64,000 bases of DNA, taken from Nitrososphaeria archaeon (GTDB lineage Archaea > Thermoproteota > Nitrososphaeria > JACIWG01). The notes beneath the pieces were generated by a model that worked only from the letters and a program-made list of their open reading frames with translations, was not told the origin of the DNA and ran no database searches. A program made the translations under genes and the position numbers. This document shows positions 4,939 to 57,710 of this stretch, in pieces (position 1 is the stretch's first letter; each line of letters opens with the position of its first letter). The stretch is from positions 24,499 through 88,498 of the forward strand of contig JBEKIG010000010.1 in NCBI GenBank assembly GCA_050011875.1, read 5' to 3'.

Positions 4939-5028
4939 GGCCTCCGTGGTGTAGTGGTAGCATAATGGCCTGTGGAGCCGTGGGCTCGGGTTCGACAAAT
5001 TAAACGTTCGAAAATCCCGACGGAGGCC
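4939..5028 (+). tRNA. tRNA-His(GTG) with encoded G-1 and an 18-nt intron at 59/60 (4997-5014)
   Basis: Acceptor G-GCCTCCG/CGGAGGC-C; anticodon arm ATGGC-CT GTG GA-GCCGT; T-stem TCGGG/CCCGA encloses 25 nt that fold into a BHB. Confidence 0.93.
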
Positions 5029-5043
5029 CCTTCCAGATCTAAG

Positions 5044-15314: not shown

Positions 15315-15364
15315 GGTTAAAAAAAATATAGCGTACTATAATAATTGGATGTTAATTATTATGG

Positions 15365-15439
15365 TAGCGAGGGGTGGATTTGAACCACTGATCTGCGGGT
15401 TATGAGCCCGCCGGGATAACCTAGCTTCCCCACCTCGCT
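15365..15439 (-). tRNA. Initiator tRNA-Met(CAT)
   Basis: AGCGAGG/CCTCGCT acceptor (A1:U72), GCGGG-CT CAT AA-CCCGC anticodon arm; CCA encoded at 15364-15362. Confidence 0.95.
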
Positions 15440-17667: not shown

Positions 17668-17962
17668 ATGAACATACGCCGGTGGACAGGTTACGGAAGA
17701 AATCCTGTGGAAACTCCTTCCTCCGAGTAAAAGCGTGGCGCTGAGAAGCGCAGCGGTAGACCGTTGGCAACGGAACAGAAACGACACCAACCTAGACGCA
17801 TGACGATGATAAATATTTGAGAAGGTCTAGCAATTGGGTTAAACGGCCGACCCACGCGGAGCAAGACCAAATAGGGCGATGTGCATTTACTCAAAGTCCA
17901 GGTAGGTCGCATAGTCTAATACTGTCAAAACAGAAGAAGGGTTACAGCCGGCTTATGTTCAT
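17668..17962 (+). ncRNA. rnpB: RNase P RNA
   Basis: Terminal P1 ATGAACATA..GCCGG / CCGGC.TATGTTCAT; CR-I GTGGAAACTCCTTC pairing with CR-V AACAGAAGAAGGGTTAC; ACAGAAA and GGAGCAAG conserved blocks. Confidence 0.93.
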
Positions 17963-38640: not shown

Positions 38641-38801
38641 TAGTAAAATGGTAAATATATTAAATTATTCGGGATCATTATTATATATGTAGGTTCCTCA
38701 TTATATATAATTAATGCAGATAATTAAAGGATTTCCAAAACAGCAAATAAGAAAAAAATATTTTATGTTCTGATAAGCATAACGACCTTCAAAGAAGACA
38801 G

Positions 38802-38886
38802 TGCGGGGGGTGGGATTTGAACCCACGAACCCCTTCGAGACGAGGTTCTGAGCCTCGCGCCTTTGACCTATCTTGGCAACCCCCGC
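38802..38886 (-). tRNA. tRNA-Leu(CAG)
   Basis: GCGGGGG/CCCCCGC acceptor, CGAGG-CT CAG AA-CCTCG, long variable arm. Confidence 0.95.
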
Positions 38887-38940: not shown

Positions 38941-39039
38941 CGCCGGGGAAGGGACTTGAACCCTTGAAACGGTAGAGCCGTTACCGGCTATCTTGTTGGA
39001 TCTCGAGGCCGGCCCTTTCGACCACTCAGGCACCCCGGC
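38941..39039 (-). tRNA. tRNA-Ser(CGA) with 12-nt canonical 37/38 intron (38990-39001)
   Basis: GCCGGGG/CCCCGGC-G, CCGGC-CT CGA G|ATCCAACAAGAT|A-GCCGG, long variable arm. Confidence 0.93.
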
Positions 39040-57464: not shown

Positions 57465-57540
57465 TGGGGTCGGTGGGATTTGAACCCACGATTTCACGGT
57501 CCCGAGCCGTGTAGCCTGAACCATGCTAGCTGACGACCCC
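57465..57540 (-). tRNA. tRNA-Pro(CGG)
   Basis: GGGGTCG/CGACCCC acceptor, CACGG-CT CGG GA-CCGTG. Confidence 0.95.
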
Positions 57541-57607
57541 CCTAACATCGATATCAAAAGGATAACCATATATACCCTTATTAAGTCTAAAAAAAATCGC
57601 CGAGAGC

Positions 57608-57710
57608 GCCGAGATACCATTTCGCTCGAGAGCTCAGCTTGGTCAGAGCGTTGGACTCATAATCCAGAGGCCGCGGGTTCGAAACATTCGCGAGAAGCCC
57701 GCTCTCGGCA
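57608..57710 (+). tRNA. Elongator tRNA-Met(CAT) with two introns: 8/9 (57616-57630) and 59/60 (57684-57696)
   Basis: Spliced form GCCGAGA-TA-GCTC..GAGC-G-TTGGA CT CAT AA TCCAG-AGGCC-GCGGG TTCGAAG CCCGC-TCTCGGC-A is a normal cloverleaf; both junctions fold as BHB-like motifs. Confidence 0.85.

Follow-up and report, generated by a model that had tools for sequence, protein, structure and literature searches.

Thaumarchaeota possess an alpha2-beta2 splicing endonuclease, and such archaea are rich in non-canonical and multiple introns in their transfer RNA (tRNA) genes (PMC4090602). In Methanopyrus kandleri the ends of tRNA precursors are trimmed before the introns are removed (PMC3695527). Designed or mutant pre-tRNAs in which pairing of the leader controls RNase P are, alongside the leaders of split and permuted tRNA genes, the nearest known parallels to the element reported here, and a designed RNase P riboswitch hides or exposes the tRNA 5' leader (PMC7897497). 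These statements, like the others below that carry an article identifier, reflect excerpts of the articles cited. Here we analyse a tRNA-Met gene in a stretch of 64,000 nucleotides (the window; contig JBEKIG010000010.1, positions 24,499 to 88,498, forward strand) from the genome of a Nitrososphaeria archaeon. The gene is interrupted by two introns, the first of them between tRNA positions 8 and 9 (the 8/9 intron), and its leader carries a copy of the 5' acceptor strand (copy 1) just upstream of the acceptor strand that belongs to the tRNA itself (copy 2). We consider it likely that copy 1 is a functional RNA element that pairs with the 3' acceptor strand, and we favour, more guardedly, the view that it is a transcribed decoy which enables splicing of the 8/9 intron.

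A preliminary description of the locus had stated that the leader is a perfect antisense match to the 3' acceptor strand and duplicates the 5' acceptor strand, and both statements were borne out. Positions 57599-57608 (GCCGAGAGCG) are the exact reverse complement of positions 57700-57709 (CGCTCTCGGC), with 100% complementarity over 10 nt, and CGCCGAGA stands in tandem at 57598-57605 and 57607-57614. The tenth base of this leader helix, 57608, is already G1 of the tRNA. Both copies were returned as complementary to 57703-57709 among the inverted repeats of the window, and the 10-mer was present at just two places in the 64 kb, where 100 dinucleotide-preserving shuffles gave an expectation of 0.00. 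Among the 46 tRNAs of the genome, tRNA-Met was the only one whose 30-nt leader offered 7 Watson-Crick pairs to the 7-nt 3' acceptor strand (the next best had 5, and 44 had 4 or fewer), while a 3' trailer mirroring the 5' strand was found in none of the 46. Since the leader forms an unbulged helix with a mature strand, the 3' acceptor strand, and the gene is contiguous and colinear, the locus falls outside the split and permuted tRNA genes.

The source genome (2.64 Mb, 40.8% G+C, 97% complete) encodes three tRNAs with a CAU anticodon. One is initiator-like with an A1-U72 pair, another is tRNA-Ile(GAU)-like with a canonical intron and is taken, from its sequence, as Ile2, and the third is the locus at 57608-57710. 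This last has G1-C72 and a body unlike tRNA-Ile, a resemblance by which it would be the only elongator tRNA-Met gene of the genome. In its unspliced form the locus was called neither by ARAGORN nor by Rfam at the gathering score; a relaxed Rfam search gave a partial match to RF00005 (57631-57691, model positions 9-63) of 27.6 bits, short of the threshold of 29 bits, as is to be expected because two introns interrupt the gene. When 57616-57630 and 57684-57696 were removed in silico, ARAGORN returned a 75-nt tRNA-Met(CAT). The tRNA and the 8/9 intron that the preliminary description had presumed are thus both real by in-silico splicing.

We then analysed the conservation of copy 1. In the family of the source genome, the 8/9 locus was found in 7 of the 9 other members searched (the 2 without a match are 76-77% complete), and copy 1 is kept in all 7, differing only by A-to-G changes that turn A-U into G-U pairs against the 3' strand. 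Public contigs were scanned with a 19-base pattern that spans the 3'-terminal part of intron 1 and the beginning of the D arm and contains neither copy. This returned 76 loci (55 metagenomic and 21 genomic), comprising 62 tRNA-Met genes, one further tRNA-Met at a contig end (L079) and 13 chance matches in unrelated DNA; the 19 archaeal genome records among them were named Nitrososphaeria, Thaumarchaeota, Nitrosopumilales, Nitrososphaerales, Nitrosomirales or "uncultured archaeon". Copy 1 was present in 69/69 loci that could be parsed to the 3' end, a set that includes the 8 loci of the source family. It was also present in the contig-end locus and in a locus running into N. Taken with the class sample described below, the loci give 46 distinct sequences, 46/46 with copy 1. 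The pairing into the T stem, to which the preliminary description had drawn attention, exists in the source genome, where the last 3 of the 10 bp pair with positions 63-65, and is no general trait: a contiguous leader helix of 10 bp is found in 14 of the 46 distinct sequences, all from the source family, one other group has 9 bp, and elsewhere the helix measures 6-7 bp.

How far copy 1 goes with the intron was assessed in 301 genomes sampled evenly from the class, which is Nitrososphaeria by record titles. The pattern consisted of copy 2 plus T, 8-38 nt, and A9 with the D arm; the leader formed no part of it, and since the patterns require a GCCGRGR acceptor, all counts cover tRNA-Met genes of that stem only. 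The tallies take in three genomes flagged as unpublished (G230, G131 and G282), all of them among the genomes without the insertion, and a stricter pattern (CUCG only) undercounted, giving 9 genomes against 19 with the looser one. The 8/9 insertion was found in 19/301 genomes from four families, namely the source genome with 7/9 other members of its family, 4/9 in f2, 5/9 in f11 and 2/4 in f14, and the pattern had no match in f5 (181 genomes), f12 (39), f7 (17) or f6 (8). In the genomes with the insertion, the central helix is formed by CUCG, CCCG or CCUG of the intron, which in every case pairs with positions 3-6 of the acceptor in the same gene. All 19 genomes with the insertion carry copy 1, counts that, the genomes being related, do not amount to 19 independent trials. 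The co-occurrence of leader and intron in relatives that the preliminary description had proposed as a check was therefore obtained, an intron without leader complementarity being seen in 0/19 genomes and 0/46 distinct sequences. A class defined by an upstream copy of acceptor positions 1-6 or 1-7 within 16 nt, complementary to the 3' strand and present with every 8/9 insertion, describes 19/19 genomes, 69/69 loci and 46/46 sequences.

The converse, that a copy implies an intron, holds in all genomes but one. Intron-less genes of the same 5' type were found in 247/301 genomes (a pattern that also matches other tRNAs), and GCCGRG within 25 nt upstream of such a gene occurred in 1/301, while none of the 17 intron-less tRNA-Met loci that were read had copy 1 beside the gene. 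The exception, G265 (L165, C6:26537-26565 and flanks), has lost the 8/9 intron precisely, with U8 and A9 adjacent, and has kept copy 1, a 6-nt spacer and an intron in the anticodon stem; two genomes of its family retain the 8/9 intron. The intron may have been lost recently in G265, and an RNA that had been spliced and not yet trimmed at its 5' end is a possible route. As G265 keeps copy 1 without the intron, the leader copy would not prevent maturation, and release of the 3' strand can be argued to be possible.

In the lineages recovered by the scan of contigs, the 5' acceptor strand reads GCCGGGG or GCCGGGA and its 3' partner CCCCGGC or UCCCGGC, and copy 1 reads GCCGGGG, GCCGGGA or GCCGGGU. 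Position 5 of copy 1 forms A-U with position 68 in 12, G-C in 32 and G-U in 2 of the 46 distinct sequences, so that copy 1, to judge from these sequences, tracks the A-U/G-C change of the acceptor stem, a covariation that comes from few events, with a two-sided change at one position, in related sequences. The spacer between the copies ranges from 1 to 16 nt, and spacer, intron and upstream leader sequences vary freely. A neutral leftover of a small tandem duplication would also give a tandem direct repeat such as copy 1, and a comparable 6-nt leader copy before tRNA-Arg(CCU) in the source genome is not conserved. Such a leftover would not, however, be expected to persist in four families and several metagenomic groups while its surroundings diverged, nor to accept only pairing-compatible changes at positions 1-6, and we regard this explanation as scarcely credible.

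It was also necessary to establish which copy is the mature strand. U8 is near-universal in tRNAs. The base after copy 2 is T in 46/46 distinct sequences, whereas copy 1 is followed by G in 31 sequences, by C in 11, and by T and A in 2 each. All 7 positions of copy 2 pair with the 3' strand in 46/46; for copy 1 this holds for positions 1-6 in 46/46 and for position 7 in 32/46. Because T8 is constant after copy 2 while the base after copy 1 varies, and because only copy 1 mispairs, the alignment identifies copy 2 as the mature 5' acceptor strand and copy 1 as leader. Were copy 1 instead the real 5' exon, the endonuclease would cut just after it, and spacer, copy 2 and the 8/9 insertion would leave together as a single, larger intron; pairing with CUCG is equally possible for positions 3-6 of copy 1, and ARAGORN also accepted the resulting in-silico product. 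Position 8 of that product would, however, be one of four bases in place of U8, and for this reason we reject it; the mispairs of copy 1 at position 7 (14/46), where copy 2 has none, and a conserved loop-closing C...G pair directly after the 3-nt bulge, which suits the register of copy 2 only, likewise speak for copy 2, leaving copy 1 as the exon with very little probability. Two further registers were considered and set aside. Excision of spacer and copy 2 as a separate intron via a self-complementary CCGG at positions 2-5 fails in the source family, where these positions are CCGA, and an outer helix formed by leader GAGC with D-stem GCUC is not maintained in a genus with a 4-nt spacer.

Both introns conform to a motif of the bulge-helix-bulge (BHB) type, with a central helix of 4 bp and, on each of the two strands, a bulge of 3 nt with predicted cleavage after its second base, and their removal gives a canonical tRNA in silico. 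For intron 1 the central helix is formed by C3-G6 (57610-57613) with CUCG (57625-57628), and the bulges are A7, U8 and A on one side and A57629, G57630 and A57631 on the other, with predicted cleavage after 57615 and after 57630. This is a relaxed motif, in which the outer helix is just G1C2:G10C11 (invariant) and the inner helix is the single closing pair C57617-G57624. For intron 2, UUCG at 57678-57681 (U54-G57) pairs with CGAG at 57691-57694, the 5-bp T stem is the outer helix, and the bulges are A, A, A and A, A, G. A MAFFT alignment of the 46 distinct sequences was used for the BHB helices only, copy 1 pairs being counted on an anchored parse. The pairs of the 8/9 BHB were intact in 46/46 sequences (columns 26-29/61-64, 100% paired), with G-U in 22, A-U in 14 and G-C in 10 at one pair and G-C in 41 and G-U in 5 at another; the helix of intron 2 (columns 159-162/175-178) was paired in 29/29 sequences having that intron, with U-A/U-G variation. 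Over the ten BHB pairs of both introns, 392/392 alignment cells held standard pairs, against at most 48.5% when the partners were slid, and the observed value was reached by 8/500 shuffles. Two open reading frames of the EndA family (PF01974) are present in the genome (C9:5024-5266 and C12:37205-37459), of 186 and 182 aa with scores of 98.8 and 80.7 bits, a pair whose sequences would fit the two-subunit endonuclease ascribed to Thaumarchaeota (PMC4090602).

The geometry of intron 1 creates a folding conflict. Its BHB uses acceptor positions 1-6 together with D-stem positions 10-11 and therefore excludes the acceptor stem, which bears out the point of the preliminary description that the 8/9 BHB needs the 5' strand to be free. 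The features of the locus are collected in the table below.

Table. Features of the tRNA-Met locus and its upstream region (positions in the window)
Feature	Position	Strand	Remarks and basis
Putative promoter region, an A/T-rich near-palindrome that separates tRNA-Met from the divergent tRNA-Pro (57465-57540, minus strand)	57562-57581		13-nt arms, 77% complementary, centred on ATATATA
TTATTAA, TATA candidate of the preliminary description	57578-57584	+	sequence
Copy 1, leader copy of acceptor positions 1-7 (GCCGAGA), proposed decoy pairing with 57703-57709	57599-57605	+	complementarity, conservation
Spacer GC	57606-57607	+	with G57608 adds 3 bp to the leader helix by pairing with T-stem positions 63-65 (57700-57702)
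Copy 2, true 5' acceptor strand (GCCGAGA, positions 1-7 = 57608-57614; U8 = T57615)	57608-57615	+	
Intron 1, 15 nt, between positions 8 and 9	57616-57630	+	BHB geometry
Exon 2: A9, D arm 57632-57649, anticodon arm 57651-57667 (CAT 57658-57660), variable loop, T-stem 5' strand 57673-57677, T loop 54-59	57631-57683	+	
Intron 2, 13 nt, between positions 59 and 60	57684-57696	+	BHB geometry
Exon 3: G60, T-stem 3' strand 57698-57702, 3' acceptor strand 57703-57709, discriminator A73 = 57710	57697-57710	+	

Folding energies were computed with ViennaRNA for 19 representatives, as the mean cost of forcing the central helix of intron 1, in models that disregard tertiary contacts and proteins. Shuffled copy 1 was unsuitable as a control, as G/C-rich shuffles still pair, and variants in which copy 1 was replaced by A7 or U7 or was deleted were used instead, together with precursors without a leader. 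With the native sequence the cost was 3.0 kcal/mol at 37 C and 2.9 kcal/mol at 65 C. It rose to 8.6 kcal/mol with A7 and 8.9 kcal/mol with U7 at 37 C (7.6 kcal/mol for each at 65 C), to 9.2 kcal/mol when copy 1 was deleted (7.9 at 65 C) and to 10.4 kcal/mol with no leader (8.5 at 65 C). At 37 C, formation of the BHB was thus predicted to be about 5.6 kcal/mol cheaper with copy 1, and folding with and without the leader gave the effect that had been predicted for it, 3.0 against 8.6-10.4 kcal/mol for the BHB central helix. The native cost was the lowest in 19/19 representatives, barely so in one of them (L044, 3.4 against 3.6 kcal/mol with A7). In the structure obtained with the helix forced, copy 1 closes the molecule and the BHB hairpin takes the place of the D arm; without the leader the acceptor stem had a probability of 0.2-0.98.

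For copy 1 to act in the RNA it must lie within the transcript, and the promoter geometry was analysed accordingly. In 36 distinct upstream regions an A/T-only block stands at -30 to -27 from copy 1 (97% A/T), and this block was smeared when the regions were anchored on copy 2. Anchoring on copy 1 also showed high A/T at -35/-34 and -26/-25, a step to G/C at -23/-22 and, at -1, a base preference. The other tRNAs of the genome have a T/A block at -34 to -28 from the mature 5' end, and T at -1 in 66%. A matrix built from these tRNAs gave its best anchors at 57597 and 57600 (4.5 bits), compared with -1.4 bits at 57608, the matrix being weak, with leave-one-out offsets of -20 to +15. Closely related pairs of loci have spacers of unequal length (5 against 16 nt in one case, 2 against 4 nt in another), yet in each pair the promoter keeps its distance to copy 1 within 2 nt. 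From this phasing we infer that transcription starts at 57599, give or take about 2 nt, so that copy 1 would be in the transcript. ATATATA at 57568-57574 is probably the TATA box and would, to judge from the flanking elements to its left and right, serve the divergent tRNA-Pro as well.

The preliminary description had placed the TATA box at TTATTAA. Its position, 57578-57584, was given correctly, and as a TATA box it is disfavoured by the A/T block phased to copy 1 across lineages; TTATTAA more likely flanks the TATA box, on the side of the transcription factor B recognition element (BRE) of the divergent tRNA-Pro promoter. Were it nevertheless the TATA box, transcription would start near 57607 and copy 1 would be excluded from the transcript. 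It could then act at the level of the DNA, lying between the TATA box and an initiation site at copy 2, or be plain promoter DNA. TTATTAA does lie about 26 nt upstream of 57608. The distance between the two copies varies from 1 to 16 nt, however, while the A/T block holds its distance to copy 1, and a promoter element is not expected to track the A-U/G-C state of the acceptor or to keep only those changes that pair with the 3' strand; moreover, copy 1 co-occurs with the intron, a feature of the RNA level. We therefore give an untranscribed copy 1 a small chance only.

A sequence of events consistent with a transcribed decoy can be envisaged as follows. Positions 57599-57710 would give the precursor of the sole elongator tRNA-Met, transcribed from at or next to copy 1. 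The endonuclease would see the 8/9 intron only if positions 3-6 of copy 2 pair with the CUCG of the intron, and that pairing, plus G1C2:G10C11, would be incompatible with both the acceptor stem and the D stem. Copy 1, transcribed first and without another partner, would pair with the 3' acceptor strand (7 bp; 10 bp in the source family), and the 3' strand, so held, could not displace the intron from copy 2. In the precursor, copy 1 and the 3' strand would then close a pseudo-cloverleaf in which the BHB hairpin replaces the D arm. Once the intron had been cut out and the exons joined, copy 2 would be left without a partner and would take over the 3' strand, after which RNase P would remove copy 1 and the spacer. 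On this scheme splicing would precede 5' maturation, and the 3' strand would be handed over to copy 2. An archaeal RNase P RNA gene is present in the window at 17674-17956 (Rfam, 199 bits). A bolder version, which we put forward tentatively and do not ourselves favour, is that the transcript starts exactly at copy 1 and folds as a pseudo-tRNA that hides the real 5' end from RNase P, so that splicing comes first and 5' trimming last. The result would be an autonomous RNA timer, triggered when the intron is removed and conserved across several Nitrososphaeria families, and G265 could be the DNA footprint of a spliced, 5'-untrimmed intermediate.

Several observations weigh against the decoy and its order of events. 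Besides the position 7 mispairs of copy 1 in 14/46 sequences, the few events behind the covariation and the narrow difference in L044, the transcript start of the tRNA-Met precursor is inferred from sequence only. Even with the leader present, many sequences have a low predicted probability of the BHB helix (median 0.0085). The copy 1 helix is predicted to stay dominant once intron 1 has been taken out, with a median probability of 0.99 against 0.00018 for the true acceptor stem, and the true acceptor stem gains on intron 1 removal in only 25/46 sequences; in the source family, with both introns out, its probability is about 0.001 at 37 C and 0.02-0.12 at 65 C. Secondary-structure energies alone thus do not predict the hand-over, which would need tertiary contacts, modifications or capture of a minor form by RNase P. 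In the source family, formation of the 3-bp extension would come at the expense of the T stem, which the second BHB uses as its outer helix; our guess is that the extension compensates for the two A-U pairs of the source-family stem. A splice-first order would, in addition, be unusual when compared with Methanopyrus kandleri (PMC3695527).

These predictions bear on a further explanation, in which copy 1 pairs with the 3' acceptor strand in a protective or architectural role, while the BHB forms co-transcriptionally and unaided. With copy 2 engaged by the intron, the helix could shield an otherwise dangling 3' strand from exonucleases, or offer an acceptor-like stem to 3' trimming or other enzymes, and conservation and co-occurrence with the intron are equally expected on this explanation. 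The BHB hairpin is local and is made some 70-90 nt before the 3' strand, and the copy 1 helix is predicted to be dominant in every processing state. On the other hand, if copy 1 is absent and the 3' strand has been transcribed, folding favours the acceptor stem by a predicted 8-10 kcal/mol, so that a helper against strand invasion is needed, unless splicing outpaces transcription of the rest of the gene. As the sole function of copy 1 we consider a protective role unlikely, though worth keeping in mind, and the decoy and architectural roles are compatible and not exclusive of each other.

A number of other observations were made at this locus and at other tRNA genes. The heptamer CGAGAGC occurs twice in the precursor, in the leader (57601-57607) and at the junction of intron 1 and exon 2 (57627-57633), both occurrences being complementary to 57701-57707; the junction copy hinges on a G specific to the source genus, where other relatives have A. 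In one member of the family (L007, G003:C14, about 94730-94760) the variable region of this tRNA-Met holds a further insertion, its third, and two other groups (L075 and L146-L149) have an insertion at that place. The initiator-like tRNA(CAU) at 15362-15439 (minus strand) has CCA encoded in the DNA, and the elongator tRNA-Met locus is without an encoded CCA. At about 4940-5030 (plus strand) lies a tRNA-His(GTG)-like gene with a T-loop insertion of about 16 nt, which was missed by ARAGORN and scored 20.3 bits in Rfam; its T-loop intron resembles intron 2 of tRNA-Met. Another intron-containing tRNA at 38941-39039 (minus strand), by eye tRNA-Ser(CGA), scored 47.1 bits in Rfam and was missed by ARAGORN without the intron option; it adjoins tRNA-Leu(CAG) at 38801-38886.

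Outside the window, tRNA-Arg(CCU) (G000:C7:51964-52090, minus strand) has a 41-nt D-loop intron between 7-nt direct repeats, GCGCAGA. It was considered as a second example of a leader copy, having, in the source genome only, a 6-nt near-copy of its 5' acceptor strand directly upstream, and was rejected as not conserved: in G004 the intron occurs with no such copy, and G001 lacks both. At G000:C8:29206-29262 (minus strand) stands a solitary copy of the 3' portion of tRNA-Arg(CCU), beginning with the anticodon arm and 98% identical across 49 nt. No 5' part is in view, and the solitary copy could be a remnant of the sort that integrating elements leave behind, or a tRNA half.

As to precedent, excerpts of PMC4090602, PMC4033280, PMC3218864 and PMC3293823 make no mention of a leader element of this kind, and full-text searches, whose coverage leaves subscription papers on archaeal tRNA introns outside, turned up neither an acceptor-strand copy in a leader nor a decoy that serves a BHB intron. 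The wider significance of the locus lies in the folding problem posed by introns in or next to the acceptor stem, where the substrate of the endonuclease and the structure of the tRNA are mutually exclusive; the tRNA-Met locus suggests a simple and conserved solution, encoded in the leader, for an essential single-copy tRNA. With an RNA of about 112 nt, two endonuclease subunits and RNase P, it offers a small system for the study of the order of archaeal tRNA processing and of RNA strand exchange. There are also consequences for annotation. Standard tRNA finders miss the gene, and such genomes therefore look as if they were without elongator tRNA-Met, while a finder that took copy 1 as the 5' end would give a wrong mature tRNA-Met sequence.

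Compared with known systems, the locus resembles archaeal non-canonical BHB introns in that both tRNA-Met introns fit the motif and the genome has two EndA-family open reading frames; it differs in that the 8/9 intron draws the 5' acceptor strand into the BHB and that a leader element is dedicated to the strand left over. Attenuators and riboswitches work by mutually exclusive helices. The precursor would share this principle, with copy 1, copy 2 and the intron's 3' end in competition, the 3' strand as the prize and the outcome setting the access of enzymes; unlike these switches, the tRNA-Met leader would act without a ligand, the trigger being the irreversible removal of the intron.

In split and permuted tRNA genes, too, sequences outside the mature tRNA pair to give the endonuclease its substrate (PMC4090602, PMC3218864, PMC3293823). 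There, however, leader and trailer themselves form the BHB and are removed by the endonuclease, whereas the tRNA-Met gene is contiguous and its leader would remove a competitor by lying in a plain helix with a mature strand, to be taken off, presumably, by RNase P. Finally, Methanopyrus kandleri likewise has archaeal pre-tRNAs with a 5' leader, RNase P and BHB introns (PMC3695527). In contrast to the order of events in that organism, removal of the tRNA-Met leader first is predicted to block splicing of intron 1, and the order of processing would thus be reversed for this one tRNA.

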